IMG/VR virus record: IMGVR_UViG_2737471843_000003
Coordinates: 1-14,020 of that record
DNA: 14,020 nucleotides
Strand: one strand, 5' to 3'
Source of the DNA: a virus
Lineage: Duplodnaviria > Heunggongvirae > Uroviricota > Caudoviricetes
The notes under the pieces are model-generated. The model made no database searches and had not been told where the DNA came from. It saw nothing but the letters and a program-made list of their open reading frames with translations. The position numbers and the translations under genes were made by a program. Positions 1 through 14,020 of this stretch are shown here, piece after piece (position 1 is the stretch's first letter; the number at the start of each line of letters is the position of its first letter).

Positions 1-342
1 ATGATGAAAAAAAGTATTCTGACGTTTCTGTTACTCACCAGTTCTGCAGCGGCGCTGGCTGCACCGCAGGTGATTACCGTCAGTCGTTTTGAAGTGGGTA
101 AAGACAAATGGGCGTTTAATCGCGAAGAGGTGATGCTGACTTGCAGACCGGGTAATGCTTTGTATGTCATTAACCCAAGTACCCTCGTGCAGTATCCTTT
201 AAACGATATCGCACAAAAGGAAGTTGCCAGTGGGAAGACTAAAGCCCAACCCATTTCGGTGATTCAGATTGATGATCCTAACAATCCCGGCGAAAAAATG
301 AGTCTGGCACCGTTTATAGAACGAGCTGAAAAACTCTGTTAA
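1..342 (+). CDS. yebY: Small secreted protein with N-terminal signal peptide, DUF2511/YebY-like
   Basis: ORF track 113 aa. The N-terminus [23 protein letters not shown] looks like a Sec signal peptide with an AxA cleavage site. I recognise the sequence as E. coli YebY from memory, not from a search. A hairpin plus T-run follows the stop. Confidence 0.6.
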
Positions 343-371
343 TTACCTAAAATAGCCTTTTGATTTCCAAT

Positions 372-413
372 AAAAAAACCGCCTCAGTTCTTTCACCAGA
401 ACGGGCGGTTTTT
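372..413. terminator. Rho-independent terminator downstream of yebY, A-run / GC stem / T-run, potentially bidirectional
   Basis: AAAAAAACCGCC at 372-383 pairs with GGCGG at 404-408, with an inner GTTC/GAAC pairing, followed by TTTTT at 409-413. The A-run on the other side would make it usable from the minus strand as well. Confidence 0.6.
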
Positions 414-469
414 AACATTTCAGCTGATGACCACCACGCTTTTTATTGACCATTTTGCACGCAAACTGG

Positions 470-500
470 AAAACCTGGCGTCGTCATCTATTCTTAAAGG
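470..500 (+). promoter_or_regulatory. Sigma-S-type promoter for sdsR
   Basis: A -10 element TATTCT at 489-494 preceded by C at 488 (the -13 C typical of sigma-S promoters), placed 6 nt upstream of the proposed SdsR 5' end at 501. No convincing -35 element. Confidence 0.45.
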
Positions 501-569
501 GCAAGGCAACTAAGCCTGCATTAATGCCAACTTTTAGCGCACGGCTCTCTCCCAAGAGCCATTTCCCTG

Positions 570-603
570 GACCGAATACAGGAATCGTATTCGGTCTTTT
601 TTT
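570..603 (+). terminator. Intrinsic terminator of SdsR
   Basis: GACCGAATAC (570-579), loop AGGAATC, GTATTCGGTC (587-596), then TTTTTTT (597-603). Read directly from the sequence. Confidence 0.75.
581..603. other. Putative attL core, the last ~23 bp of sdsR
   Basis: A tyrosine integrase gene ends 130 bp downstream. The terminal 23 bp of ryeB/sdsR has been reported as a recurrent phage attachment site in Salmonella and E. coli. The exact crossover cannot be determined from one junction. Confidence 0.4.
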
Positions 604-640
604 AATTGTATTTAAAATCAATTAGTTGCAAACGTCTCCC

Positions 641-670
641 CGAAATTACTCGAAATTTACTCGAATTTCT
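641..670 (+). repeat. Three tandem 10-11 bp direct repeats, candidate arm-type integrase binding sites
   Basis: CGAAATTACT (641-650), CGAAATTTACT (651-661), CGAATTTCT (662-670), read directly. They sit between the putative core and the int 3' end, like the P'1-P'3 arm sites of lambda attP. Confidence 0.4.
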
Positions 671-734
671 GTATTCCGGTCTTTTTTGGTTATATCACAA
701 CCAAAACACATTTAACAATCCATTTACGTTAAAA

Positions 735-1811
735 TCAGAGCAGTAAGTACGTTTTTTCTCTCTCATCAAGATACATTTTTGTTGTCTTCTCCGATGTGTG
801 GCCAAGTAGACGTTGAGCAAATTCTTCCCCACATGTTTCTTTGTACAATCGTCCAGCCAGGCTTCTGATCTCGTGAAAAGTTGGTGGGTTTTCACTGAAC
901 TGGATACCTGTTAATTTTCTGGCTGCGACAAATTTTTTTGTCAGGCCGTCCGGGTGAATGCTGCCGTCAGGGCTGTTTTTTCTAATCCCGGCACTGATTA
1001 GAAAATCTCCCCGGCTTACCAGGCGGCACCGTTCAACTACTGTACCAAGACGTAAACCAGCGACCGGAAGGCTGAGTGACAGGGGGATAGCAATCATCAT
1101 TCCTGTCTTAATTTGCCTGATGTGAAGACGATCATCATAAATATCACTGAACCGCATATTCGTTATGTCTTCGCGACGTTGTCCTGTTACAAGGGCTAAG
1201 TCCATAGCTAATGGGAACCATGCCGGAAGTTGATCTGCTGCCTCCCTGATGCAGTTGTATGTCTTTAGTTTCAGCCGTTCTCTTGTAACTACTATTTTCG
1301 GTGCTCTTGTTGGCGTTACTGGATTTTGAGATATACGCCCTTCAACAATGGCTTCGCGGAACATATCAGATAACACAGAACGCATTGATCCTGCCATCGT
1401 GTTTTTCCCTCCTTCAATCCACAAATCAAGAAACTCGGCAATATGGCGAGTGGTTATTTCTGTCAGTAAGATCCCTCCTAATTTTTCTTTTATTGTTTCC
1501 AGTTGATTTCCCCGAATTTTATAAGTATTTCTGGACACTTTTCTCCTTATAAGAATCGTTTTGTAACGTTCAATCCAGTCTGCCATAGTAAATGAGTCGA
1601 ACCCTTTAAGTTTTTCAATTAAGGCAGCAGGAGAGTAGTTTTTGTATATATAATGATTTGCTTCAATTGCCTGCGCGATTGCATCTCTTCTTGAAATTTT
1701 ACCTAGTGTAAATTCTTCTTTCGTAAGAGGGTTGCGCCAGTAATATGCTTTGTCCCTCCTTCGATATGTTAAGTTCCTAGGCAAATTGGGATCGTATTTT
1801 TTCCGCTGCAT
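735..1811 (-). CDS. int: Tyrosine recombinase, lambda Int-family integrase
   Basis: ORF track 358 aa. The N-terminus resembles the lambda Int arm-binding domain. The C-terminus carries the catalytic signature [11 protein letters not shown]...[15 protein letters not shown] (R, HxxR, Y). Its start overlaps the xis 3' end. Confidence 0.9.
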
Positions 1812-2058
1812 GTTTTAACTTCTCCAGTAACGGACTGTCTCTCCCTTGTCGCCCATTAGGCTGATGGTGTGTTATATCGGTATCAACCTTATTTGGGTTG
1901 ATATAGAAAGCCTCCGGAACCACCCTGTAACTCCTCCCGTGTAGTTCAGGTGCAGGATAAATGTTTCCATTCCTTGCCCATCGTCTCAGCGTTGATATTG
2001 ATGGTGGGTTATCCGGATATCTGAGTTTTCCCCACGTTTTGAGTGTCACAAGATTCAT
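1777..2058 (-). CDS. xis: Excisionase (Xis-like)
   Basis: The pattern VTLKTWGKL...STLRRWARNGNIYPAPELHGRSY resembles the lambda Xis winged helix. It overlaps int by 35 bp. I prefer the start at 2058 (AGAGG 7 nt upstream) over the track start at 2064. Confidence 0.7.
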   Translation of the reverse strand: MNLVTLKTWGKLRYPDNPPSISTLRRWARNGNIYPAPELHGRSYRVVPEAFYINPNKVDTDITHHQPNGRQGRDSPLLEKLKHAAEKIRSQFA

Positions 2059-2080
2059 TGCCATACCTCTTACGATATGA

Positions 2081-2109
2081 CCGCCAGTAAATATACAGAA
2101 TACTGGCGG
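2081..2109. promoter_or_regulatory. Perfect 9-bp inverted repeat upstream of xis
   Basis: CCGCCAGTA (2081-2089), 11-nt spacer, TACTGGCGG (2101-2109). It lies about 20 bp upstream of the xis ribosome-binding site with no adjacent T-run, so a protein-binding site or RNA hairpin is more likely than a terminator. Confidence 0.3.
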
Positions 2110-2164
2110 ACGTGATTGATTTTTAATAATCAGCTATGAAGTTATAATTTGGATATAATGCAAC

Positions 2165-2353
2165 TCACGAGGGCCGAAGTTTCTCGCAATTAAAATTTAT
2201 CAGCTTTACTTTCTGCTCTCTGGAAACGCCTGCTTCTTTTTTCCCCGAGAGCATTTTTTCGCATTCTGATTTAGTTAGTTTAGATTTTGAATATCTTGTC
2301 CAGTTAGTAGGAGTGCCACCTTCCTTTTCAATAGTGGCGGTAATTTTATACAT
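2165..2353 (-). CDS. Small hypothetical phage protein, 62 aa, at the Rac ydaC position
   Basis: In frame with track ORF 2165..2425. An internal ATG at 2353 is preceded by GGAGG with 5-nt spacing, and overlaps the lar stop by 8 bp. The family is not confidently recognised. Confidence 0.5.
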   Translation of the reverse strand: MYKITATIEKEGGTPTNWTRYSKSKLTKSECEKMLSGKKEAGVSREQKVKLINFNCEKLRPS

Positions 2354-2540
2354 GAACACCTCCATTATTATTTCCAGTGGTTCGTTTATTCCATCGTTCG
2401 AGTGCTTCTTTTTCACTTCCACCATAGCCGGTTCGGGATTCGCATCCGTTACACTTCGCGCGGTAATATCCTGAAATGGCTTTCACCGTTACTGATGGAC
2501 AACCACAAAAAGGGCATGGTTTGACTTTTTCATACCGCAT
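2346..2540 (-). CDS. ralR: Lar-family restriction alleviation protein (RalR-like)
   Basis: Track ORF 2346..2555. The CPFCG...CNGCE zinc-ribbon-like motif and ALERWNKR are typical of the Lar family. A start at 2540 gives 64 aa, the Rac RalR length as I recall it. Confidence 0.7.
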   Translation of the reverse strand: MRYEKVKPCPFCGCPSVTVKAISGYYRAKCNGCESRTGYGGSEKEALERWNKRTTGNNNGGVHV

Positions 2541-2603
2541 TGTCTTTTCTCTCATATAATAAAGTTTTGTGATGGCGGTGAGGCTACACCGCCAAAGTCA
2601 ATA

Positions 2604-3707
2604 TCAGGAGCCGATATATTCTGGTTTCATATCTGTCAGTGTCGTTTTATACGCCTCATATAATTCACCCAGATGTGGTCGTGCAGCATTCAGCGTATTT
2701 TCCAGAGCAGTAAATTTTTGTTCTGCTTCTGGATCACCTGATGAAGGCAGGTCATTTATCATCTTCTCGATACTGGCAATAGCATTGAGACGGTGATGAC
2801 GCCGAACCACTTTTCCTTTAAGCTCGGCAAAGAATTCGCCGATCTGGTTTTTCTGATCCTCTATCTCTTGGCGTAATGCAGTGGTTTCCTCAGTCGTGGC
2901 CGCGCTTTCTATACGCTGCCGGAATTCATCAATCCACGCTTCGTCAATACGCTGTTCGATGGTTTCTGTTCGCTGCTCGCTTACCTCGCTATAATTCTGT
3001 ACCGACACAGGATTGATGATTTTTTCCTGTGGCTCTTCCAGTTCGTCCGGGGTATACACGCCCAGGATGACGTCAGGACAATAAAGGCGAGCCCAGTATT
3101 TCAACGCCAGATAGGCGAGCTGTTGTTTCGGGTTTGAGGTCCATAAAGGAGAATTACGCGTAATCACGCTGGAAAGAAACACCGGTTCTCCCCAGGTAAT
3201 CTCACTTTCACCGCGAAGAACTGCACCAACTCGAACTGAGAGACCATACTCATCTTCACTGGTCCAACATGGGATCGTTTCTTTTTTCTCATAGATTCCG
3301 CCTCCTTTGGCCGTTTTCTTAACGATCTCCACTCGGGTGCGAGAGCATTTCTCCCAGTCTCCCTCGTACTTGTAATGGAAGCGACCTACAATTGCACTTG
3401 AGCTAGAGATCACAGCGTTAACCAGTTGTGCTTCATAACCCAGAACTCCGTTTACCAGGTGTGTTTTCTGAGCCACAGCGTAGGGGTTCATGCCCCATTG
3501 CATAGCTTGCATGATGATTGCCATGCAGTCGGCAGGATTTCCGCGAAGGTGATCGGGAACTGTGACGGTGGCCTGTGCCATCAACCCGGCTACTGCCTGA
3601 AGTTGCGTCAACGCCTGAACGTTAAAAATAGTGTTACTGGCAGAAATGGTATTTGGTGTCTGCTCTGTCGTGATGATATTGGTATTTTGCATGGTCAGGT
3701 TCTCCAT
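2604..3707 (-). CDS. Single-strand annealing protein, RecT/Redbeta superfamily, partner of RecE
   Basis: ORF track 367 aa. The core ADCMAIIMQAMQWGMNPY...VNGVLGYEAQLVNAV fits the RecT/Redbeta pattern. It sits immediately downstream of recE with a 1-nt stop/start overlap. It is clearly not the canonical 269-aa K-12 RecT sequence. An alternative start at 3692 has GGAG upstream. Confidence 0.7.
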   Translation of the reverse strand: MENLTMQNTNIITTEQTPNTISASNTIFNVQALTQLQAVAGLMAQATVTVPDHLRGNPADCMAIIMQAMQWGMNPYAVAQKTHLVNGVLGYEAQLVNAVISSSSAIVGRFHYKYEGDWEKCSRTRVEIVKKTAKGGGIYEKKETIPCWTSEDEYGLSVRVGAVLRGESEITWGEPVFLSSVITRNSPLWTSNPKQQLAYLALKYWARLYCPDVILGVYTPDELEEPQEKIINPVSVQNYSEVSEQRTETIEQRIDEAWIDEFRQRIESAATTEETTALRQEIEDQKNQIGEFFAELKGKVVRRHHRLNAIASIEKMINDLPSSGDPEAEQKFTALENTLNAARPHLGELYEAYKTTLTDMKPEYIGS

Positions 3708-6700
3708 TAAGCCAGATGCAGTGCTTCAAGACGACGAAGATCAAAGTCGTTTAATTCGTCGGTATAACTTTCGGTAATCGGTGCTGGCCAGTTGTTTGTC
3801 TCCAGGGCTTCGTTTATCTGGCGTAGCGTCCGGCGATATTCCTGTCGACCAAGTTCAAGGAGTTCCTGCGAGGCTTCCACGACTGCCACCCAGTGATAGC
3901 CAGCATCTTTGTTGACGAAGATCCAGAAAAATTTGTCCAGGTTTGCCACATCGCAATACATTGCGGCGCTGAGGTGATAATCACGCTCAATAATTTCACG
4001 GTGCAGGCGATCTTTAAGTCGTTCCTGCCGCACATAACCGAGGCTGACTGACTTCACGTCAGCGCAAATGCTTTCGTATGGCAGCCGGATTTCGATATCA
4101 GGACGGACCCTGATTTCCAGCCCGGTTTCTTCATCAAACCCGAAATAGCTGATTTCAGATTTGCGATCCGGGTGGTTGAGTAGCCTTGCTGCATCGGTAT
4201 TGTTTTGCAGTGCCGCGTGAATATTTTTTGCCTGTTCATACATATCCGGACTGATAAACGTTTTCCCGGCGTTTTCTTCTTGCTGGCGTTTTTGCCAGTC
4301 CTCCAGTGTCACCAGTTCCGGGCGAATTTTCCGTGCGATTTCGGTTAATTGCTCTTTTGTGCCACTGATGTTGTAAGGCAAAGATTTAGCACGTTCTTTT
4401 TTTGCCAGTTCTGGATCTACAGTTTCAATTTGATCCAGAAGCTGCTCCCGTGCTCCACTGGTTTTCAACAGAGGAGGGAGGCTTGCGTTGTATTCTTTAA
4501 TACAGGCTTTCATTGCTGATGCTGTGTGTTTTTCCCCCTCAGGAATACGCCGAAATTCCACCGGAAGCGAACCGTAAAGGATGCCTGTTTCTTCGGCCCC
4601 AGCACTTACAGACAGTGGCTGTATAAGAGTGCTGTTGTAGCTTTCGATCCACTCTTTCATCTGCTCTGGTGTCATCAGTGCTGGCAGACTGGCATTGTGT
4701 TTTTTAATGATGGCGATCAGTTCGTTAGAAGTAGTAACCACATATTCAGGAACCGGTACCGGAATGGCATATTCATCTGCGAATTTATCCGTTTCCAGAA
4801 CATAGCTGTGAATGATCCGCCCACGCAGCAGTGCGTCACTTTCCTCGTTCGGAATAGTTCCGGCAATGTGCCGCCCGTGGTAATACATCAGGCTGATACG
4901 GGCATCCTTCAGCATCGTGCTGCTTATTCCGTTGGCGGAGTGATAAACCTCGTTCGGGAGGTTTTCATAGCGGCCTGGCTCGAAATATGACGGCCACATG
5001 ATTTCAGTTGCTACAGGAGCTGACGCTTCGCCAGTTTCATCACTGCAATTGCGATGCGGATCGCTGTCAGCATTCTCATTGTGCTGATGTTCAGCGCCTT
5101 CCATTTCCTCCGGATCTTTTTCCAGAGATTCATCCAGATTTTCTTCATTAAATGTTTCCTGATACGTTGCGTCGCCCATCGCCGCGCCACAATCAGGGCA
5201 GTTGCCCCCACCGATCTGACCGCAGGCGGTGCAGACTTTTTCCGGTTCTTGTTGCTCTTCTGGTTCAGGCTGTTTCGTTTCTGGCTCGTTTTGTTGCGTA
5301 TTTGGGCTGTTTTGTTCCGCTTTCTTGTCGTTCTGTTCCGTTTCTTGCTGGTTCTGGTTCACAGAGTCGAGGGTTTCAATCCCCTTAACCCATTTCGGAT
5401 CGTTCGGGTCGCTAATCCCTTCAACAAATTCTCCGCGAGAGGCAGCCAGTAATTTGTCTGCATCGACAGGATTTTTGGGCGGAATGTTTTTCCGGGCTTC
5501 ATGGAGTTCTGCCCGCAGTTTCTGATATTTCGCATCAACAGAATTTACCTGTGACTGAGCATCCAGCGGCTGCGTGTTCTGATGATGTTCAGTTGCATTC
5601 GGTTCCACTGTTTCAGCCGTTGCCTGTTCATCTGCCATTGCGCCAGATGGTTGTGGTTTTTCTTCATCGTCCTGTTTTCCTTCTTCTGTTACTCGCTGCG
5701 GCATCGGGGCAGAGGAGCGACCGCAGGCAATATCCACGATTTCCGGATCAGGGTTGGCATGATCGGTTTCAGTCAGTACTTTGTTCAGATATTCAGTGAC
5801 GTGTGCGGGGATGACCTCGATCCCAATTGGTGCTTCTTTCACGGACGCAACCACGATGGCGCGGGAATAATCCAGCCCGCCAGGCATGGTGATGAATTTG
5901 TCGCGGAAAACAGAAAAGGGTGGTTTATTTTCAGCGATAATTTCCTCAATGCGTTTAGCGTGTGCCGGATGAAGGTTATAAATGTCCACGTCCATTGAAC
6001 GGGCCAGTACGCCAGTGGCTACATCGCGTGCCAGTGACGTCAGATCGTGGACGAAACCTTCGCCGCGATCGGTGAGGTTCCCGCCGCCAGCATTAGCACC
6101 GGAAGCCGTGCGAGTGATGCGTGAAACACGATTTCCTTTCATCCACTCTTTTGTCAGCAGACCGCGATCGGTGTAGTCTGCGTCCAGGTATGCTTCGAAA
6201 AAAGCAGTCATCAGCCCCAGACTTGAATTGCCTGGATTAGGGAAAACTTTGTCAGTATCACGAACCAGTCTGTGAAGATCGCGAATCTCCAGCGGGTCGA
6301 GCAGGCTGGTTTTGTGGGAAACAGCTAGGGCAGTAACAGCTGGTAGTTCTTCGGCCCGTGCAATATGTAATGTCTGGAGTTCGTCGCGTGAAACGTGCGT
6401 TACCGGTTTTTCGCTGCCGTGTTGAGCAAGCCAGCGAATGGGCAGCTCTTGGCCAGAAATCGGGAGTAGCATATTCTCCTCAATCTCAGTCATGTCTTCG
6501 CCATTAACATTGGTATTGTCAGTGCTGTCTGGTTTGTACTGCGCAGAGGATGAGGGCGCGATAAATACCATTGTGATGCCATCTTCCCCGCCTTTTTCGT
6601 AACGGTTGCAGAATTCCGTATCAAATACGCCTTCTGGTGGAAGGTCATCAACAACGGGCAAATTGACGCGAACAGGTTTTTTAAAGTCATCTTCATCGTA

Positions 6701-6856
6701 GCCAGCATCGTCAATCGCAACAGCACCACGGGAGATGGCAATGGATAATTTTTTCGCTTCAGCCCAGTAGAAACCGCCTTTAATACCGAGACGTTTTCTT
6801 ACTTTGTCATTTTTTGCTTCGTAATACAGTGGGTAAACTTGTTTATCGGTGCTCAT
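3707..6856 (-). CDS. recE: Exonuclease VIII (RecE-family 5'-3' dsDNA exonuclease)
   Basis: ORF track 1049 aa. The C-terminal domain carries PD-(D/E)xK-type residues (RPDIEIR...CADVKS) and long stretches I recognise as RecE-like. It is about 180 aa longer than the 866-aa K-12 RecE as I remember it. Confidence 0.85.
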
Positions 6857-6926
6857 TGTTTTTTAACCTCAACTCAGATTAAAATTACTGCGAGTGATGA
6901 ATAAATGTCCCTGGTTCTTCACTCAG

Positions 6927-6957
6927 GCCTGCACAGTGTGCAGGCTTTCTTTTTTTC
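6927..6957 (+). terminator. Perfect hairpin with T-run in the racC-recE intergenic region, terminator-like only on the plus strand
   Basis: GCCTGCACA (6927-6935), G, TGTGCAGGC (6937-6945), then TTTCTTTTTTT. On the minus strand, which is the operon strand, the hairpin is preceded by an A-run and has no U-tail. Confidence 0.35.
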
Positions 6958-7231
6958 AGATTTCACCTTTTAATTTCATTGCAATCAGAGTTGCCAGAAA
7001 TTCGGCTTTTTTTTCTGCGGGCAGATTCTTTCCTATGTGCACCAGACACATTTTTTTAACACCATCGTTAAGTGTTTTAACGTTGCCTGATGGACCGTCG
7101 ATATCAACCACAGTGAATGGGGTTTCTTTATTTTCTGTCTTAATCACGTAGCCAATACGCTTTCCTTCCAGGCTGACTTCGTGAACAATGTCATCGGTAG
7201 TTACAACAGTGGCTTCATAACTGGTAATCAT
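6956..7231 (-). CDS. racC: RacC-like protein, 91 aa
   Basis: Track ORF 6956..7279. The ATG at 7231 is preceded by AAGGAG with 6-nt spacing and gives 91 aa beginning MITSYEATVVTTDD, recognised as Rac RacC. Confidence 0.75.
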   Translation of the reverse strand: MITSYEATVVTTDDIVHEVSLEGKRIGYVIKTENKETPFTVVDIDGPSGNVKTLNDGVKKMCLVHIGKNLPAEKKAEFLATLIAMKLKGEI

Positions 7232-7305
7232 GTTTTTCTCCTTAATTAAGGTTGAGCGAATCTCTGCCATTTCTGGCATAAATTCAGTTTCGAATAGTCA
7301 ATTAA

Positions 7306-7476
7306 TTAAAGTTCGTGTGCCATCTGGTCTTTTTCGGCACAGATTTCACTACAATATTTTTTCATTTCCGTCGTTGGTATAACTCCACGCATGAAATGAA
7401 GTGGTCTTGTAATGATTTTGCTTTCTTCAATTTCTTTATTGCAAAGGTGATAAGCACATTTTATTTTCTTAGTCAT
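7306..7476 (-). CDS. ydaE: Small Cys-rich protein, 56 aa, YdaE-like
   Basis: Not in the ORF track because it is under 60 aa. Hand translation gives [56 protein letters not shown]. Its ATG overlaps the kilR TGA stop (ATGA). Its size and position match Rac ydaE. Confidence 0.6.
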   Translation of the reverse strand: MTKKIKCAYHLCNKEIEESKIITRPLHFMRGVIPTTEMKKYCSEICAEKDQMAHEL

Positions 7477-7697
7477 CACCATGACTCCGCCTTTACAGGT
7501 AAACCATCACGACCGAGGAAGACTTTAATCATGCGGTCAGTAATGCATGTTTTTGTGGTCAGGTTACGAATATAAAGTTTTCGCTTTTTAATATTGTTTG
7601 CCGAGGCGATATATGTCCGACCTTCATGAAGAACATAATCGCCAGGAGTCACACACTGACGTGGTATTTCATCAGTTCCGAAGTGATGAGCAATCAT
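7476..7697 (-). CDS. kilR: KilR-like cell-division inhibitor, 73 aa
   Basis: Track ORF 7476..7709. The ATG at 7697 is preceded by GGAG and gives a 73-aa protein beginning [15 protein letters not shown], recognised as Rac KilR. Confidence 0.75.
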
Positions 7698-8106
7698 AAT
7701 TATCTCCATTTTTACAAATGAATTTTGTCGATGCGGTGCCTGGTGCCTCCAGGTGACGTTAACCAGTTAACAATTAACGCCGGATATTTCACCCATAACT
7801 CTGCTACGAAGGACAATAGCTTTTTAACTGTTCCGCGTGCGCTTAGCCGCATTCACCGCATCACAAAATTCACTTTAAAAAGGGGCGGCAGGGCAGCCAC
7901 GGAGTAGAACTGATGCCGCCAAAGACTACACACAGCAATGTCGTTATTTACAACCGGAGGCGCACTCCCACCATTTAAATTTAACAGACAAAACCGACTC
8001 TTTATGAATACCGGAAATGCGCCTTCGTGTTGTGCGCCTGTCTTTTTACCACTTCAGGCTCGGTGGTATACTGGAGTTCTCACACAACCAGTAATAAGGT
8101 ATTCCT

Positions 8107-8301
8107 ATGGATAATAAAGACAAAGCCTGTCTACTTGCTTTAGCTTTCAGCATCAGATCGCAGCGAGAAACAACTCATCAATAATTTTTCTCGGAAATCG
8201 AGAATGCTGAGAATGAGTTTTTGTCACTACTCAATGAACGTGATGCTAAAAAAAGCGCCGATTCACTTAAGGCTTGGGCGAAACTAGGCTCTTCAAAATA
8301 A
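8107..8301 (+). pseudogene. Small ORF interrupted by an in-frame TAA: 25 codons, stop, 38 codons
   Basis: ATG at 8107 gives MDNKDKACLLALAFSIRSQRETTHQ, TAA at 8182-8184, then in the same frame FFSEIENAENEFLSLLNERDAKKSADSLKAWAKLGSSK ending at TAA 8299-8301. An extended -10 (TGgTATACT, 8064-8072) lies upstream. Its 3' end overlaps the convergent 72-aa gene. Confidence 0.3.
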
Positions 8302-8485
8302 TTGCTTCTGTAGCGGCATGAACAACTGTTTTTGCCGCCTCTTCAACTTCCTTGTCTGGACGACCAGCCTTTACTTTTTCTGCAATGACCTCCAGCACAG
8401 TTGGAAGAACCTTGCTAATAAGCATGGCTGCCACATCTTTGCTGCACAATTGACCGTTAATAACAACCAGATCTTCACCAACCAT
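8267..8485 (-). CDS. Hypothetical small protein, 72 aa
   Basis: Track ORF 8267..8542, whose first codon is TTG. The internal ATG at 8485 is preceded by AAGGGGA. It is the first gene downstream of the candidate pL-like promoter. Function unknown. Confidence 0.45.
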   Translation of the reverse strand: MVGEDLVVINGQLCSKDVAAMLISKVLPTVLEVIAEKVKAGRPDKEVEEAAKTVVHAATEAIILKSLVSPKP

Positions 8486-8660
8486 CTTTTTTCCCCTTAA
8501 CGCCGGGTGGCGGAACGTTTTATCTACTGCGCTTTGTATCAATCAACAACTGCCGTCATGTTCGTATGCCTCAGGCTGGCTACTTAGCCCTATTCAGTGG
8601 CTGGATAACTCGAGGTATTGTCCTGCCGTTCTCTGGTGGGGCGTTGTTTGGATATGGCAA

Positions 8661-8689
8661 ATGCTCACATATCGTGAGTGTTTTGTCAA
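8661..8689 (-). promoter_or_regulatory. Candidate pL-like leftward promoter with an operator palindrome in its spacer
   Basis: On the minus strand: TTGACA (plus 8684-8689), 17-bp spacer, GAGCAT (plus 8661-8666, weak -10 with TG upstream). The perfect palindrome CTCAC-N5-GTGAG at 8664-8678 overlaps the spacer and -10 and matches the operator motif found between the repressor and ydaS. Confidence 0.4.
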
Positions 8690-8730
8690 CTCAATATGTG
8701 AACAATGTTGCTTTTGGATTTTTGATGGAC

Positions 8731-8765
8731 AAAAAAAAGCCCTCGCTAATAGCGAGAGCTTTTTG
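8731..8765. terminator. Rho-independent terminator downstream of the repressor gene, bidirectional shape
   Basis: A8 (8731-8738), GCCCTCGCT (8739-8747), loop AAT, AGCGAGAGC (8751-8759), then TTTTT. One mismatch in the stem. Confidence 0.6.
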
Positions 8766-8790
8766 ATTGGAATCGAGGGAGATTAAAGGC

Positions 8791-9180
8791 TTAGGAGGAT
8801 TTTTTCTGTTGCCTGCTTCTTAGATATTTTTCCACATACTCATCAAGCTCTTGAAGACGGATTTCGAACAGATCAATCATGCGTGCTTGTTCCGATCCTG
8901 GGAGCTGATTAAACAGTTCTAGCATTTTTTTCTGGTTATCATTTAACCACGAGTAAGTGTTTTCCTGTTCACCGAACATTAATTCTGCGGGGGAAATGCC
9001 TAGTACCTGGCCGAGGATGATCGCATCCTCAGCCCCCACACTCCTGGTGCCAGCTTCGTAGTTAGCAATACGAGAAGAACCTGACCAACCACATAGTTTT
9101 GCCAGGTTTCCCATACTTAATCCTCGATTTAGGCGAGTGGCTTTTAGTCGCTCGCCTATTTGTTCTGCAATGGTTTTCAT
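8791..9180 (-). CDS. XRE-family HTH prophage repressor (cI/RacR-like), 129 aa
   Basis: Track ORF 8791..9285. The HTH region is LSMGNLAKLCGWSGSSRIANYEAGTRSVGAEDAIILGQVLGISPAEL. I prefer the ATG at 9180; the track start at 9285 is a TTG that would overlap the ydaS start. The gene is divergent from the Cro-like gene. Confidence 0.8.
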   Translation of the reverse strand: MKTIAEQIGERLKATRLNRGLSMGNLAKLCGWSGSSRIANYEAGTRSVGAEDAIILGQVLGISPAELMFGEQENTYSWLNDNQKKMLELFNQLPGSEQARMIDLFEIRLQELDEYVEKYLRSRQQKKSS

Positions 9181-9274
9181 AGCTCCGATTTTATCACGAT
9201 GTGTGAAATTAGCGGTACTCACATATCTGTAGTTGATCTTGCTCACGAAATGTGAATAATAGAAACAGGAGGTA
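9181..9274. promoter_or_regulatory. Divergent promoter/operator region with three operator-like sites at ~24-bp spacing
   Basis: TCACGATGTGTGA (9194-9206), CTCACATATCTGTAG (9218-9232, half-site match) and TCACGAAATGTGA (9243-9255). Rightward promoter: TTGATC (9233-9238), 16 bp, AATAAT (9255-9260). Leftward -10 TAAAAT (plus 9188-9193) sits 7 nt from the repressor ATG. Confidence 0.6.
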
Positions 9275-9277
9275 ATG

Positions 9278-9520
9278 ATGAACAAAATTTCAACATATCG
9301 AAAACAGCTTGGGCTGTCTCAAAGACAACTTGCTGTTCAGTTAGGGTGGATACAAAGCCGACTGGCAAATTACGAAGCAAATTTTCGTACCCCTGGGCTA
9401 GAGGAGTGCAGAAAAATTGTTTCTACCCTTAATCGGCTTGGCGCTCATTGTGGACTTGACGATGTATTCCCCCCAGACGGTAAGCATAGCGAAAACAGCA
9501 TAGGAGCGGTTGATTCATGA
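9278..9520 (+). CDS. ydaS: Cro-like HTH protein, YdaS-like
   Basis: Track ORF 9275..9520. AGGAGG at 9267-9272 favours the ATG at 9278. The HTH region is LGLSQRQLAVQLGWIQSRLANYE. It is the first gene of the rightward operon and its stop overlaps the ydaT start (ATGA). Confidence 0.7.
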   Translation: MNKISTYRKQLGLSQRQLAVQLGWIQSRLANYEANFRTPGLEECRKIVSTLNRLGAHCGLDDVFPPDGKHSENSIGAVDS

Positions 9521-9939
9521 AAATCAGGCATGAGCATATCGAATCAGTGTTGTTGGCCCTGGCAGCCGAAAAAGGGCAGGCGTGGGTCGCTAACGCAATT
9601 ACTGAAGAATATCTGCGCCAGGGGGGCGGCGAATTGCCCCTTGTACCAGGCAAGGACTGGAACAATCAGCAGAATATCTATCACCGTTGGTTGAAAGGTG
9701 AAACGAAAGCGCAAAGGGAAAAAATTCAGAAACTGATCCCTGCGGTTCTGGCAATTCTTCCGCGCGAGCTGCGTCACCGACTCTGCATCTTCGATACCCT
9801 GGAACGCCGTGCATTACTGGCGGCGCAGGAAGCGTTGAGTACGGCAATTGATGCGCATGATGATGCAGTCCAGGCCGTTTACCGGAAAGCACATTTCAGC
9901 GGTGGTGGGTCGCCCGGCGATTCTGTCGTAGTGCATTGA
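9517..9939 (+). CDS. ydaT: YdaT-like protein, 140 aa, reported as a toxic prophage protein
   Basis: ORF track 140 aa. I recognise the sequence MKIRHEHIESVLLALAAEKGQAWVANAITEEYLRQGGGELPL as Rac YdaT from memory. It is translationally coupled to ydaS. Confidence 0.75.
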   Translation: MKIRHEHIESVLLALAAEKGQAWVANAITEEYLRQGGGELPLVPGKDWNNQQNIYHRWLKGETKAQREKIQKLIPAVLAILPRELRHRLCIFDTLERRALLAAQEALSTAIDAHDDAVQAVYRKAHFSGGGSPGDSVVVH

Positions 9940-9983
9940 TTGAAATTAATCGTGCCGGATTGTTTTGTTCGGTATCAGTTAAA

Positions 9984-10004
9984 TGTAACGCTGCGAGCGT
10001 TACA
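9984..10004. promoter_or_regulatory. Perfect 21-bp palindrome 12 bp upstream of the ydaU-like start codon
   Basis: TGTAACGCT-GCG-AGCGTTACA with 9-bp perfect arms, read directly. The same core recurs inside the downstream gene. Confidence 0.45.
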
Positions 10005-10016
10005 AGGTGAAAACAA

Positions 10017-11153
10017 ATGGCTTCAAACTGGATAAAGCTCGAGGTTATTACGCCGGATAAGCCGGAAATATTCAGGCTTGCTGAGATTCTGAATATTGAT
10101 CCAGATGCCGCATTAGGGAAGGTTATTCGCTTCTGGGCATGGGCGGATCAACAAATGATAGACGGTAATGCAGATTGTAACGCTCGCGGCGTTACAAAAA
10201 GTGCAATAGATCGCATCACTTTTATGGCTGGTTTTGCTGATGCGTTAATTCAGGTTGGATGGCTGGTCGAAAATGACGGTGGGCTTTCTCTACCTAACTT
10301 TGAACGTCATAACGGAAAAAGCTCTAAAAAACGGGCGGTTACAAACGAGCGAGTTACAAAAATACGCGAACTGAAACGAAAAGGTAACGCTGGCAGCGTT
10401 ACACAAACGGATCAAAAAGCGTTACCAGAGGAAGAGGAAGAGGAAGAGGAAGATCTAAATACTGATCTAACCCATCCCAAACCCTTCCCTTCCGGAAGGG
10501 AGTTTCGGGATTTTGTGGCTGGAGTGCTTGAGGGGAGATTATCTGGCGGTACTGCAGCGGAATTTTGTAATTCTGCGGTGGTGGCGTTGCAGGCCGCTGG
10601 CCTGGATGTCTGTCGTGAGTATCCGGTACCAGAGCGTGGAGACGGTTGCGGAGGTCGGATTGATATCGTCGTGACTGACAGGAACGGTGTCCGGTGTGGG
10701 ATCGAACTTGACCGAAATTCTCCACGACAAAAATCACTGCTCAAAATCGGCGCTGTTGAAACCGGGATATGTGTCTTGCGGCGCAGTGATATCGCAAGGC
10801 ACACCGAGCAGGGAATTCTGGTTATCGGTGGGGCTGTTCGCCAGAAAAAATTTGACCCGTTGTCAGTTGATCTGCCCGACTGGTTGCCAGAAACACTCTG
10901 GCATGAGTGGGTCCAGTTCAGGCAGGCATTGCGAAAACCGATTCGAACGGAGCAGGGCGCTAACGGGGCGATACGGGAACTGGAAAAATTCCGTCAGCAG
11001 GGGTTTACACCTGAGCAGGTGATTCGACACAGCATCGCCAATGAATACCAGGGCCTGTTCGCGCCGAAAGGTGTTCGGCCTGAGACGTTGCTCCGACAGG
11101 TTAACACCGTCTCGTTGCCGGACAGTGCGATCCCGCCAGGCTTCAGGGGGTAA
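10017..11153 (+). CDS. ydaU: Replication initiator / replisome organiser, YdaU-like, with a poly-Glu linker and an extra central domain
   Basis: ORF track 378 aa. The N-terminus MASNWIKLEVITPDKPEIFRLAEILNID...VIRFWAWADQQ resembles the DUF1376 N-terminal pattern of lambdoid initiators. It sits just upstream of the DnaC-like gene. It is longer than the 285-aa K-12 YdaU as I recall it. Confidence 0.75.
   Translation: MASNWIKLEVITPDKPEIFRLAEILNIDPDAALGKVIRFWAWADQQMIDGNADCNARGVTKSAIDRITFMAGFADALIQVGWLVENDGGLSLPNFERHNGKSSKKRAVTNERVTKIRELKRKGNAGSVTQTDQKALPEEEEEEEEDLNTDLTHPKPFPSGREFRDFVAGVLEGRLSGGTAAEFCNSAVVALQAAGLDVCREYPVPERGDGCGGRIDIVVTDRNGVRCGIELDRNSPRQKSLLKIGAVETGICVLRRSDIARHTEQGILVIGGAVRQKKFDPLSVDLPDWLPETLWHEWVQFRQALRKPIRTEQGANGAIRELEKFRQQGFTPEQVIRHSIANEYQGLFAPKGVRPETLLRQVNTVSLPDSAIPPGFRG
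10176..10425. repeat. Iteron-like array of GTTACA-core repeats inside the initiator gene, candidate ori
   Basis: TGTAACGCTCGCGGCGTTACA (10176-10196); direct GTTACAAA half-sites at 10338-10345 and 10353-10360; palindrome GTAACGCT-GGC-AGCGTTAC (10384-10402); half-site AGCGTTAC (10418-10425). A-rich stretches lie between them. Confidence 0.45.
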
Positions 11154-11159
11154 CAGACC

Positions 11160-11906
11160 ATGAAAAATATTGCGACAGGAGGCGTTCTGGAGCGTATCCG
11201 CAGACTGACCCCACCACATGTAACCGCCCCATTCAGAACGGTTGCGGAGTGGCGCGAGTGGCAACTTGCTGAAGGGCAGAAACGTTGCGAGGAGATCAAC
11301 CGCTTGAATCGTCAGTTGCGGGTGGAAAAAATCCTGAATCGCTCTGGCATCCAGCCGTTGCACCGCAAATGTTCGTTTGCGAATTACCAGGTGCAGAACG
11401 ACGGCCAGCGATACGCGTTAAGCCAAGCGAAATCCATCGCCGATGAACTGATGACCGGGTGTACAAATTTTGCGTTCAGCGGAAAACCTGGTACCGGGAA
11501 GAACCATTTAGCGGCAGCTATCGGGAATCGCCTGCTGAAAGACGGTCAGACAGTGATTGTGGTTACCGTGGCTGATGTTATGAGTGCCCTGCATGCCAGC
11601 TATGACGACGGGCAGTCAGGCGAAAAATTTTTGCGGGAACTGTGCGAAGTGGATCTGCTGGTTCTTGATGAAATTGGCATTCAGCGCGAGACGAAAAACG
11701 AGCAGGTGGTACTGCACCAGATTGTTGATCGCCGGACAGCGTCGATGCGCAGCGTGGGAATGCTGACAAACCTGAACTATGAGGCCATGAAAACATTGCT
11801 CGGCGAGCGGATTATGGATCGCATGACCATGAACGGCGGACGCTGGGTGAATTTTAACTGGGAGAGCTGGCGTCCGAATGTCGTCCAGCCAGGAATTGCG
11901 AAGTAA
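11160..11906 (+). CDS. ydaV: DnaC/IstB-like AAA+ helicase loader, YdaV-like
   Basis: ORF track 248 aa. Walker A motif [15 protein letters not shown] and Walker B LLVLDEIG are present. It lies immediately downstream of the initiator gene. Confidence 0.85.
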
Positions 11907-11928
11907 TTTTTACCGGGAGAAAAATTTA

Positions 11929-12690
11929 ATGGAGACTGTTTTTGACGCACTGAAAGCAATGGGAAAAGCCACATCCTTAGAACTTGCTGCGCGACTTGGT
12001 ATCAGTCGTGAAGAAGTGCTGAACGAACTATGGGAACTGAAAAAAGCTGGTTTCGTTGATAAAAGCGCGTACACCTGGCGTGTGGCTGATAACAACGTTC
12101 AGCAGGAACAGCCAGCGCCGGAAGAACAGCCGGAAGAAACCACCACGGCAACAGTAGCGAAAATCTCAGAGTGCGATTTAACCGCGACGATTGAACAACG
12201 CGGACCACAAACGGCGGATGAGCTGGCTGCGTTGTTCGGTACCACATCACGCAAAGTAGCTTCAACGCTGGCAATGGCAATCAGCAAGGGGCGTCTGATT
12301 CGCGTAAATCAGAACGGTAAATTTCGTTACTGCATACCGGGCGATAATTTACCAGCAGAGCCGAAAGCTGCATCGGTAACGGAAACTGATGGTAAGGCCT
12401 TTCCTCAGCCCGCAGGTGTTGCGTTACCAGTACAGGAAGCGGCAACACAGGAAGATATTAAAACAGAAACTGTGGCGGACATTGTGCAGTCGCTGCCATC
12501 GTTCACCGAAACGCGAGCGGATGACCTGATTTTACCATCGCTGCATATGGCAAACCGCGAACTGCGTCGGGCGAAAAGTCATGTCCAGAAGTGGGCGCGA
12601 GTCTGCGCCGCGCTGCGGGAGCTGAACAAGCACCGGGATATTGTTCGACAGATTACTGATTCTTCCCGCCGTGTTGTATCGGAAAAGTGA
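11929..12690 (+). CDS. Hypothetical phage protein with two winged-helix-like segments
   Basis: Track ORF 11878..12690. Two ATG starts are possible: 11878 (GGAGAG upstream, overlaps ydaV) and 11929 (GGGAGA upstream). The segments [30 protein letters not shown] and [30 protein letters not shown] look like winged-helix folds. Function unknown. Confidence 0.55.
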
Positions 12691-12705
12691 TTGCCGGAGG
12701 CACTT

Positions 12706-13128
12706 ATGGCAAAAGTATTTACACAAGAAGAGCGGGAAAAAATTAAAGGGCAGGTTGTTGAGCTAGTACGCCGGAGTGGGCGCGAGACGTTACGGCAACT
12801 GGAAGCCAAGACAGGTGCGACAAGATATCTGATGAGCGTTCTCGCCAGAGAGCTTGTTGCCAGTGGCGATGTATACAACTCTGGTTACGGGTTATTTCCG
12901 TCTGAACAGGCCCGTAAGGACTGGCAAAACGCCCGCAAAAAACTCTCCAGGGCAAAGGTGAAAAAAACGGTTGTGGTTGATCCTGACCTTATCTGGTCAT
13001 TACCAGACGGAGAAATACGCCGCTACGACAGGCGCCTGAATATAATCTGTCGCGAGTGCCGGAAGAGCGAAGCTATGCAGCGTGTACTGGCTTTCTATCA
13101 GGGTAATTTTCAGGAGGTAGCGCAGTGA
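12706..13128 (+). CDS. Hypothetical phage protein, 140 aa
   Basis: Track ORF 12691..13128, which begins with TTG. The ATG at 12706 is preceded by GGAGG with 5-nt spacing. Its stop overlaps the GTG start of the methyltransferase gene. Confidence 0.55.
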   Translation: MAKVFTQEEREKIKGQVVELVRRSGRETLRQLEAKTGATRYLMSVLARELVASGDVYNSGYGLFPSEQARKDWQNARKKLSRAKVKKTVVVDPDLIWSLPDGEIRRYDRRLNIICRECRKSEAMQRVLAFYQGNFQEVAQ

Positions 13129-13598
13129 GTGCACCGGCAACCATTCTTGATATGTGCTGTGGCAGTCGCATGTTCTGGTTCGATAAGAATGACGACCGGG
13201 CGATATTTAGCGATATCAGAAAGGAAGAGCACACATTGTGTGATGGACGACGCTTGATTATCAGTCCTGATCTGATAGCTGATTTTCGTGCACTACCATT
13301 TGCAGACGCATCTTTTTCGATGGTTATATTCGACCCTCCGCATCTTGAGCGTGTTGGTGATAACGCCTGGATGGGAAAGAAATATGGACGGCTGAATAAA
13401 GATACCTGGCGTGATGATTTGCGGCAGGGATTTAAAGAAGCCTTTCGTGTGTTGCGTCCATCCGGCGTTCTGATTTTTAAATGGAATGAAACGCAAATAC
13501 CTGTTCGCCAGATATTGATACTGACCGACAGAAAACCTGTTATCGGTCAACGAACAGGAAAAAACGATAAAACCCACTGGATTATTTTTATGAAATAG
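13125..13598 (+). CDS. Small SAM-dependent amino-methyltransferase, DPPH motif, RsmD/N6-adenine-MTase-like fold
   Basis: ORF track 157 aa. Motif I-like ILDMCCGSRMF and motif IV-like IFDPPH occur in the order typical of N6A/N4C/m2G amino-methyltransferases. The GTG start has AGGAGG 7 nt upstream. No target-recognition domain is evident. Confidence 0.65.
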   Translation: MSAPATILDMCCGSRMFWFDKNDDRAIFSDIRKEEHTLCDGRRLIISPDLIADFRALPFADASFSMVIFDPPHLERVGDNAWMGKKYGRLNKDTWRDDLRQGFKEAFRVLRPSGVLIFKWNETQIPVRQILILTDRKPVIGQRTGKNDKTHWIIFMK

Positions 13599-13744
13599 GC
13601 ATCCAGTGAGTAGGTTCGTAAGGTTACAGATACGTATATCTGAATAATTAAATTTAGTTCTGTAAATAAAATTTAATCCTTAATCGGAGGGATTTCTGCA
13701 CCCTCAAATCATCAGGAGGCCGCCCGAAAGGGCGGTAGTGAAAA

Positions 13745-14020
13745 ATGACTGAATTAACCAAAGAGCAATTAATCGAAGAGGCCAAATTAAAAATAGCGAT
13801 TGCGAAATGCCACCCCAATTCAGGGTTGGCACGAGTAGAGGGTGAGTTATTCAAAATTGCTCTGGCATCACTGGAGCAGAATGCACTATCGGGCAACTCT
13901 CCGCTTATTCCTGGTGAAGTGTTGTCCGCAATCCGGGAGGTTGCCAGGATTCGCGCCGATTTCGATGATTTTGACGGTGACAGGCGAGGTATCGGTGATT
14001 GTCTGGATGAGGCCGAGCAA
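13745..14020 (+). CDS. Hypothetical protein, 5' partial ORF running off the window end
   Basis: ATG at 13745 and an open frame to 14020 (92 codons, MTELTKEQLIEEAKLKIAIAK...). It is missing from the ORF track because it has no stop within the window. The upstream signal is weak. Confidence 0.45.
   Translation, partial: MTELTKEQLIEEAKLKIAIAKCHPNSGLARVEGELFKIALASLEQNALSGNSPLIPGEVLSAIREVARIRADFDDFDGDRRGIGDCLDEAEQ

Follow-up and report, generated by a model that had tools for sequence, protein, structure and literature searches.

The closest described counterparts of the genetic switch treated here are the right operator of phage lambda, the DicA/DicC system of the Qin prophage of Escherichia coli K-12, the PaaR2/YdaS/YdaT system of CP-933P in E. 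coli O157:H7 and the RacR/YdaS/YdaT system of the K-12 Rac prophage. The locus compared with them lies on a stretch of 14,020 nucleotides from a virus of the Caudoviricetes (IMG/VR record IMGVR_UViG_2737471843_000003, positions 1 to 14,020), here called the window, which covers the left half of a lambdoid prophage of the Rac-like kind. The locus comprises a repressor gene, a divergent Cro-like gene and the short DNA between them. Judged from the sequence and by analogy with the described systems, the locus is quite likely a switch of the lambda/DicA/PaaR2 type, that is, the right operator of a Rac-like prophage with a DicA-family repressor and a leaderless maintenance mRNA.

Comparison with described switches

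Three operators of DicA lie at dicA-dicC and at dicBp; the protein activates its own gene and is inactivated by an antirepressor rather than by RecA-stimulated cleavage (bioRxiv 10.1101/2023.04.14.536235). The locus resembles the DicA/DicC system in its short helix-turn-helix (HTH) repressor, which has a C-terminal LELF..LP.SEQ helical domain and lacks a cleavage domain, in its divergent small regulator gene and in the placement of operator-like sites, which occupy the divergent promoters as well as the leftward promoter of a DicF/division-inhibitor operon, here with a DicF-like small RNA (sRNA) and kilR downstream. It differs in that the DicA sites are of the TGTTAG..CTAACA type, whereas those of the window are of the form TCAC-N5-GTGA. 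Furthermore, the Cro-like protein has no detectable similarity to DicC, nor to either characterised YdaS, the right-hand genes are ydaT and Rac-type replication genes, and dicA is preceded by no obvious −10 element at 6-7 nt from its ATG.

PaaR2 also activates its own promoter, its mRNA has been found leaderless by rapid amplification of cDNA 5' ends (5' RACE), N-terminal sequencing and mass spectrometry, and a YdaT-activated promoter of the repressor-establishment (PRE) type exists in CP-933P (PMC8630535). The OM site of this prophage has been DNase-footprinted with YdaT (PMC9986795). Both loci have a divergent gap of 97 bp, repeated operators over the repressor-maintenance, rightward and leftward promoters (PRM, PR and PL) and a repressor without an S24 peptidase, and the −10 element of paaR2 lies 6 nt before the ATG of a proven leaderless mRNA, which in the window is a predicted one. 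Any kinship between the two repressors is remote, however (hhalign probability 76%, E 2.3e-5 over 85 columns; no BLASTP match). PaaR2 operators are four repeats of the GTTTAGTAA type, CP-933P YdaS belongs to a family other than that of the HTH_3 Cro-like protein, and the window has no paaA2-parE2 toxin-antitoxin pair.

The racR gene is served by three promoters, of which the strongest is leaderless and two are leadered (PMC9638921). Rac and the window share the order int, xis, ralR/RalA, recT, recE, kilR, repressor, regulator, ydaT and ydaU/V-like genes, and RacR likewise has three inverted-repeat operators and a leaderless transcript from its strongest promoter. In contrast, no detectable similarity links the repressor to RacR (no BLASTP alignment) or the Cro-like protein to YdaS, and the RacR operators read TAGGC-n3-GCCTA, with O3 overlapping the coding sequence. 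The label Rac-like, given in a preliminary description of the sequence, suits the prophage context and not the repressor, which is a DicA homologue without detectable similarity to RacR.

With lambda the locus shares three operators 23-25 bp apart, operator counterparts on the left (OL) and an OR3 (the right operator nearest the repressor gene) centred at −20 from the repressor ATG, against −19 from the leaderless start in lambda. In both, a GTGA half-site runs straight into the PRM −10 element (GTGATAGATT in lambda, GTGATAAAAT here), and lambda has TCAC/GTGA half-sites in OR1 and OR3, ACAC..GTGT in OR2 and the same N5 spacing (locus L068, 752-815, against 9194-9255 of the window). Unlike lambda CI, the repressor carries no S24 autocleavage domain, and its HTH domain is nearer to P22 c2, 434 and C.AhdI than to CI. 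Its leftward start is 3 bp more distant from the middle site than in lambda, the window has no more than two OL sites, and YdaT stands in place of CII.

The proposed right operator region

The repressor and Cro-like genes diverge from a gap of 97 bp (9181-9277), in which related operator-like sites, about 2.3 helical turns apart, overlap both promoters, as in lambda-type switches. The elements are:

8791-9180, minus strand: repressor gene, 129 amino acids, with an HTH_3/HTH_31 N-terminal domain and a helical C-terminal domain; PGAP gives the same start
9188-9196, minus strand: PRM-like extended −10 element TGaTAAAAT, with a predicted start at A9180 or 1 nt before it
9194-9206: OR3-like operator TCACGATGTGTGA, an exact palindrome match overlapping the spacer and extended −10 of the leftward repressor promoter
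9219-9231: OR2-like half operator TCACATATCTGTA, abutting the rightward −35, with only its left TCAC half fitting the consensus
9233-9260, plus strand: PR-like promoter from a promoter scan, with −35 TTGATC (9233-9238), a 16-bp spacer and −10 AATAAT (9255-9260)
9243-9255: OR1-like operator TCACGAAATGTGA, an exact match in the rightward promoter spacer, touching its −10
9267-9520, plus strand: Cro-like gene with the Shine-Dalgarno sequence AGGAGG (9267-9272), encoding an HTH_3 protein of 80-81 amino acids

The preliminary description had proposed three operator-like sites about 24 bp apart between the two genes, the outer two TCAC-N5-GTGA palindromes and the middle one matching in its left half only. 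All of this is present, with start-to-start spacings of 25 and 24 bp. A third exact match, at 8665-8677, lies outside the region it considered and had been missed. The description had also ended the gap at 9274, with the Cro-like start at 9275, as PGAP does. Since the relatives of the Cro-like protein begin with MN.. and one allele (AH19B041) has no ATG at 9275, the start is probably the ATG at 9278, from which the gap of 97 bp (and a coding region 9278-9520) follows.

Exact TCAC-N5-GTGA matches number 3 in the 14,020 bp, against 0.13 expected, and all of them sit in the two non-coding regions that flank the repressor gene. Allowing one mismatch, the pattern is not significant in the window, so that the operator signal rests on the exact sites. 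OR1 fills the spacer of PR and OR2 abuts its −35, and the predicted rightward start falls near 9267, where AGGAGG begins. On the minus strand, the sequence runs ...TCACACATCGTGATAAAATCGGAGCTATG through the leftward −10 to the repressor ATG. As described earlier, TAAAAT (9193..9188) is followed by 7 nt, CGGAGCT, and the ATG (9180..9178); what had not been noted is that the TG of the extended −10 is supplied by the GTGA half-site of the operator. The leftward promoter fits the weak or activator-dependent PRM type, because it has no credible −35.

Two other identities were considered for these sites and rejected. A CRP-like reading (TGTGA..TCACA) has the wrong half-site order and spacing. Lambda CI as the cognate protein shares the half-site tetramer, but the HTH domain encoded here is of the 434/P22/C-protein type.

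The OL-like sites and the PL-like promoter

The site at 8665-8677 belongs to a second operator set at a leftward early promoter, again as in lambda-type switches:

8661-8689, minus strand: PL-like promoter, read from the sequence, with −35 TTGACA (8689..8684), a 17-bp spacer and extended −10 TGtGAGCAT (8669..8661)
8665-8677: OL1-like operator TCACATATCGTGA, an exact match downstream of the repressor terminator, in the PL-like spacer
8689-8701: OL2-like half operator, TCACATATTGAGT on the minus strand, 24 bp from OL1 and abutting the PL −35
8735-8765, minus strand: intrinsic terminator after the repressor gene, with its stem at 8742-8756, an A run on one side and a T run on the other

The minus strand of this module reads TCACatattGAGT-TGACA-aaacac-TCACgatatGTGA-GCAT, that is, the OL2 half, the −35, OL1 and the extended −10, which is too weak for a simple promoter scan. 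The terminator could act both ways, given the A and T runs on its two sides. The PL-like promoter would drive an open reading frame of 72 amino acids, the DicF-like sRNA and kilR, as an analogue of dicBp of Qin.

Conservation of the operators

Comparison of the operators with those of related prophages, a check that the preliminary description had suggested, was made with five relatives from Salmonella, Serratia, Citrobacter, Enterobacter and Atlantibacter, whose repressors are 57-84% identical to that of the window. A narrow repressor alignment gave four genome loci, and more were added through exact-protein look-ups; a wider alignment contained no block conserved enough for locus retrieval. 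The relatives have in common the order repressor, gap of about 100 bp, Cro-like gene, ydaT and a DnaT-like gene. The gap DNA itself has diverged, but in all five the two complete palindromes, the middle half site and two promoter elements (the rightward −35, the leftward −10) hold fixed positions.

Over the six intergenic regions, aligned with a mean column identity of 70%, the invariant columns are TCAC....CGTGATAA on the repressor side, a GTGA half-site in the middle, TCAA (the rightward −35 TTGA on the other strand), and TCACA...GTGA together with the ribosome-binding site and start of the Cro-like gene on the other side. The rightward −35 is TTGACA or TTGACT in the relatives. At the OR3 position, TCAC-N5-GTGA is exact in all five relatives, and an equivalent of OL1 downstream of the repressor gene is exact in L007, L008, L010 and L018, with one mismatch in L012. 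Six loci of about 4.4 kb each hold 19 exact sites, every one of them at OR1, OR3 or OL and none at any other position. TTGAC and GAnnnT of PL are conserved in six of six loci, the paralogous module TCAC..TTGAC..TCAC-N5-GTGA is common to PR and PL in all of them, and some relatives have added a third full OL site. Stacking of the 38 half-sites gives T-TCAC-R-W-W, and hence a palindrome of about 15 bp, TTCACR-N3-YGTGAA. Seven near-identical E. coli and phage alleles differ from one another at nine gap positions, none of which touches a TCAC/GTGA core or a promoter hexamer.

In a second clade, to which E. coli P0042-type proteins, Brenneria, Dryocola, Pectobacterium, the Proteus repressors of 214 aa with an S24 domain and an O157:H7 prophage belong, the three-site geometry is retained but the half-sites are ACAC/GTGT, and the recognition-helix region is different too (..QSRIGNYE.. 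in the ACAC clade, ..SG[SA]SR[IVL]ANYE.. in the other). Taken together, these comparisons are strong evidence that the sites are functional operators. No description of the specificity TTCACR-N3-YGTGAA was found in the literature on RacR, PaaR2 and DicA, at which the search was aimed rather than at the motif itself.

As a separate observation, the half-site tetramers of lambda match those of both clades although the HTH domains are not close relatives, which may be convergence or coincidence.

A probably leaderless repressor mRNA

All 14 family members with a comparable locus have a TG and a TA-rich hexamer (TAnnnN) directly after the proximal operator half-site, 6-7 nt before the repressor ATG. 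The distance is 6 nt in most and 7 nt in the window, L007, L003 and L019, and the bases that fill it are not conserved. The same geometry is found in lambda PRM/cI (GCGGTGATAGATT-TAACGT-ATG, with OR3 at the position given above) and in paaR2 (GATAAT-TACCAC-ATG). Leaderless translation requires an ATG start, and the start codon is ATG in 14 of 14 members. In addition, when the predicted mRNAs of eight relatives were folded, seven had their first 12-20 nt unpaired. By geometry and by analogy with these two cases, there is a good chance that the repressor transcript starts at 9180 or 9181. The suggestion of the preliminary description that this mRNA is probably leaderless thus gains support from the constant distance and from the parallels with lambda and paaR2, its 5' end being a predicted one. 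Conservation of this geometry over at least 14 diverged loci also strengthens the general view that lambdoid repressors have leaderless maintenance transcripts.

A second transcript is likely to exist beside it. YdaT (Pfam YdaT_toxin, PHROG 163) belongs to a CII-like activator family and is 31% identical to YdaT of CP-933P, and a candidate target for it lies at the junction of the Cro-like gene and ydaT:

9510-9527: YdaT (CII-analogue) box TTGATTCATGAAAATCAG, spanning the Cro-like stop codon and the ydaT start codon; 0.01 expected

The box is identical to the footprinted OM site of CP-933P at 17 of 18 bases and occupies the same position, at the end of the upstream gene, which makes a YdaT-dependent, leadered repressor transcript from a PRE analogue likely.

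Exact TTGATT-N6-AATCAG boxes number two in the window, against 0.01 expected. The second, at 2116-2133, lies upstream of the xis start by 52 nt, a position like that of lambda PI, and upstream of the RalA sRNA by 36-53 nt as counted from its 5' end, and may serve either promoter.

If the operators are real but the repressor mRNA comes mainly from an upstream promoter, either TATTAT at 9262..9257 or the YdaT-dependent PRE, then it would be leadered and its translation aided by GGAG, and TAAAAT would be an AT-rich operator flank. This explanation is unlikely, though less so than the other alternatives considered below. It can point to the GGAG at 9186..9183 on the minus strand, 2 nt before the repressor ATG, which the preliminary description did not mention, and to AGG or GAGG at the same place in L003, L008 and L010. 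Two of the three racR promoters are leadered (PMC9638921), and the box of the YdaT-activated PRE-type promoter of CP-933P (PMC8630535) is present here.

A spacing of 2 nt is too short for a working Shine-Dalgarno sequence, so that GGAG is unfit to serve as one; it has become GGAA in three of the seven near-identical alleles and is absent from L007, L012, L014, L016, L018 and L019. The repressor gene thus has an ATG start and no functional Shine-Dalgarno sequence, as leaderless genes do. Moreover, a fixed distance of 6-7 nt across 14 diverged loci is hard to explain unless the −10 sets the 5' end of the mRNA, and the uniform use of ATG, needed for leaderless translation, also speaks against a mainly leadered transcript.

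The middle site

With the leaderless maintenance mRNA retained as the preferred reading, the question remains whether the switch has three right operators or two. The middle site fits only 4 of 8 core positions in the window and abuts the conserved TTGAC of the rightward −35, so its conservation could partly be that of the promoter; on this account operators are confined to the two full palindromes, and the switch is bipartite, with a middle site that is an accident of the −35 region. Several features make that improbable. The conserved half (CGTGAAT or TGTGAGT in the orientation of the repressor gene) lies outside the −35 hexamer and is invariant in six of six loci, while the other half is degenerate, and the spacing of about 24 bp to the neighbouring site is kept. 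The arrangement of half-site and −35 recurs at PL. In the ACAC clade the middle site becomes an ACAC half along with the other sites. Furthermore, the 10-mer CTCACATATC is common to the middle site (9219-9231) and to OL1 at 8665, which argues against a chance half-match, and those single-nucleotide differences among the close alleles that fall within the middle site are confined to its spacer. These data are strong evidence for a middle half-site designed as a weak site rather than arisen by accident.

That the palindromes are compositional features of an AT-rich divergent promoter region, bound by no protein, has a negligible probability: the general AT-richness of the region is all that favours it, and it is opposed by the 200 dinucleotide shuffles, none of which reached three exact matches, by the 19 exact sites at homologous positions in six genera with none elsewhere, and by half-sites whose sequence changes together with the repressor clade.

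The repressor

The repressor is 29% identical to K-12 DicA over its full length (132 columns, E 6e-15 in BLASTP) and is thereby a member of the DicA family. Residues M1, K2, T3, E6, I8, G9, E10 and R11 are invariant among its relatives. Pfam shows HTH families only and no S24 peptidase, so the protein is not an SOS-cleavable repressor of the CI/LexA kind. In its AlphaFold model (predicted local distance difference test, pLDDT, 87.6), five helices make up the HTH domain, and a linker leads from it to a short helix and then a long one at 95-128. The whole chain has its best fold match in SinR, which combines an HTH domain with a helical domain for multimerisation, and the HTH domain alone superposes on C.AhdI and P22 c2 at ~1 Å. 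A sequence search of solved structures returned generic HTH proteins only, and the fold search returned no solved full-length DicA or PaaR2-like structure. Because the repressor lacks an S24 domain, induction through an antirepressor, by analogy with DicA, is more likely than RecA-stimulated cleavage.

Over its N-terminal half (residues 1-73), which contains the DNA-binding domain, the repressor shows 61-63% identity to the N-terminal domain of LexA-family repressors from Proteus, proteins of 214 aa (P0045-P0116, locus L016) that carry Peptidase_S24. The gap of this Proteus locus has the same three-site and −10/ATG geometry. From these sequences, the relation between SOS-cleavable and non-cleavable repressors looks like one of domain shuffling.

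Two further features of the gene were examined and set aside. A longer open reading frame initiated at TTG (8791-9285) would include operator DNA that is not conserved, and conservation of the protein family begins at M1-K2-T3. A 13-bp hairpin at 9130-9158 (repressor codons 8-17), terminator-like on the plus strand, had been a candidate regulatory RNA or terminator. Relatives do not conserve it (L007 z = +0.6), close alleles disrupt it with no compensating change, and it is probably incidental.

Two repressor cassettes at the Cro-like gene

The immunity cassette of the window is rare, being found in 10 of 5,426 complete E. coli genomes and one phage record. Its Cro-like allele, at a DNA identity of at least 95%, is present in 162 E. 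coli genomes, together with the window-type repressor in 10 and with another DicA-family repressor in ~153. One example of the latter is an O157:H7 prophage (L020, G5295), whose Cro-like protein (1934-2173) is 100% identical while its repressor, of 139 aa, and its operators differ. The recombination joint falls exactly at the Cro-like start codon. In the common O157-associated type, OR1 and OR2 have ACAC/GTGT half-sites and OR3 is TCAC-N5-GTGA, whereas all sites of the window type are TCAC. As the second type keeps its OR3 in the TCAC form, the comparison suggests that the Cro-like protein either tolerates both operator types or prefers the TCAC type.

A more speculative reading, for which the chances are about one in four by our estimate, takes these cassettes as a natural swap experiment on the asymmetry of lambda-type switches. 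The outermost operator base would partition the preferences of repressor (OR1 and OR2) and Cro (OR3). In addition, a DNA-binding domain with 61-63% identity to that of the window is fused either to a SinR-like helical domain or, in Proteus, to an S24 peptidase. If this is true, closely related operator specificities are served by two induction routes, antirepressor-type control and SOS cleavage.

Proposed mechanism

The scheme that follows builds on sequence anatomy, conservation, homology and geometry, which were established directly, and we infer from it binding, cooperativity, activation and the transcript 5' end. Repressor dimers would recognise TTCACR-N3-YGTGAA and bind the strong site at 9243-9255 over the rightward promoter, and the helical C-terminal domain may recruit a second dimer to the half site at 9219-9231 beside the rightward −35. 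With both sites occupied, the operon of the Cro-like gene, ydaT and the replication genes would be off, and the sites at 8665-8677 and 8689-8701 would in the same way keep the PL-like promoter, with the DicF-like sRNA and kilR, off. Over the repressor's own promoter, the site at 9194-9206 could serve for negative autoregulation once repressor is abundant, and the Cro-like protein probably prefers it as a target. Opposite preferences of repressor and Cro for shared operators, and cooperative binding, are traits of lambda-type switches; what speaks for them here are the predicted helical C-terminal domain and the similar recognition helices. Transcription from TGaTAAAAT would start at the A of the AUG or 1 nt before it, giving a leaderless maintenance mRNA as for lambda cI, paaR2 and racR. 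At establishment, the YdaT box at 9510-9527 would probably give rise to the second, leadered repressor transcript.

Some observations weigh against this scheme. The leftward −35 is very poor (ACCGCT), and leadered repressor transcripts could come from TATTAT, another leftward hexamer that resembles a −10, or from the PRE-like promoter. The distance from the −10 to the ATG is 7 nt in the window rather than 6, so that a leader of 1 nt is equally possible. For the middle site, the centre falls near −45 relative to the predicted leftward start, compared with −42 for lambda OR2, and activation in the manner of lambda is therefore not to be assumed. Finally, the same Cro-like allele is paired with a different repressor and operator set in the ~153 genomes mentioned above.

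Every design principle of this switch is already known from lambda, DicA of Qin, PaaR2 of CP-933P or RacR of Rac, and the locus, a well-supported but ordinary example, leaves the current understanding of how such switches work unchanged. New are the putative operator specificity TTCACR-N3-YGTGAA and the full predicted map of PRM, PR, PL and the PRE box for this clade of the DicA family, which offers targets for footprinting and for the annotation of Rac-like prophages.

Prophage context

The gene order follows the annotation of E. coli PEC178 (NZ_CM168017) and of phage PP818812, two near-identical records, and Rfam:

735-1811, minus strand: int, with xis adjoining it in the gene order
2169-2347, plus strand: RalA sRNA, with ralR
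2604-3707, minus strand: recT
3707-6856, minus strand: recE
7476-7709, minus strand: kilR
7883-7934, minus strand: DicF-family sRNA (Rfam RF00039, 61.6 bits), between the first open reading frame of the PL operon and kilR
9517-9939, plus strand: ydaT, followed by replication genes

The placement of the DicF-like sRNA parallels the order dicA-ydfABC-dicF-dicB of Qin. At the other end of the window, the host sRNA pair SraC/RyeA and SdsR/RyeB (463-607) directly adjoins the integrase end and yebY occupies 1-342, which marks the integration site. One of the records, PP818812.1 (locus L001), was deposited as 'Actinobacillus phage vB_Apl-pPE4'; its region is 98.8% identical to E. coli prophages, and the stated Actinobacillus host therefore looks doubtful.

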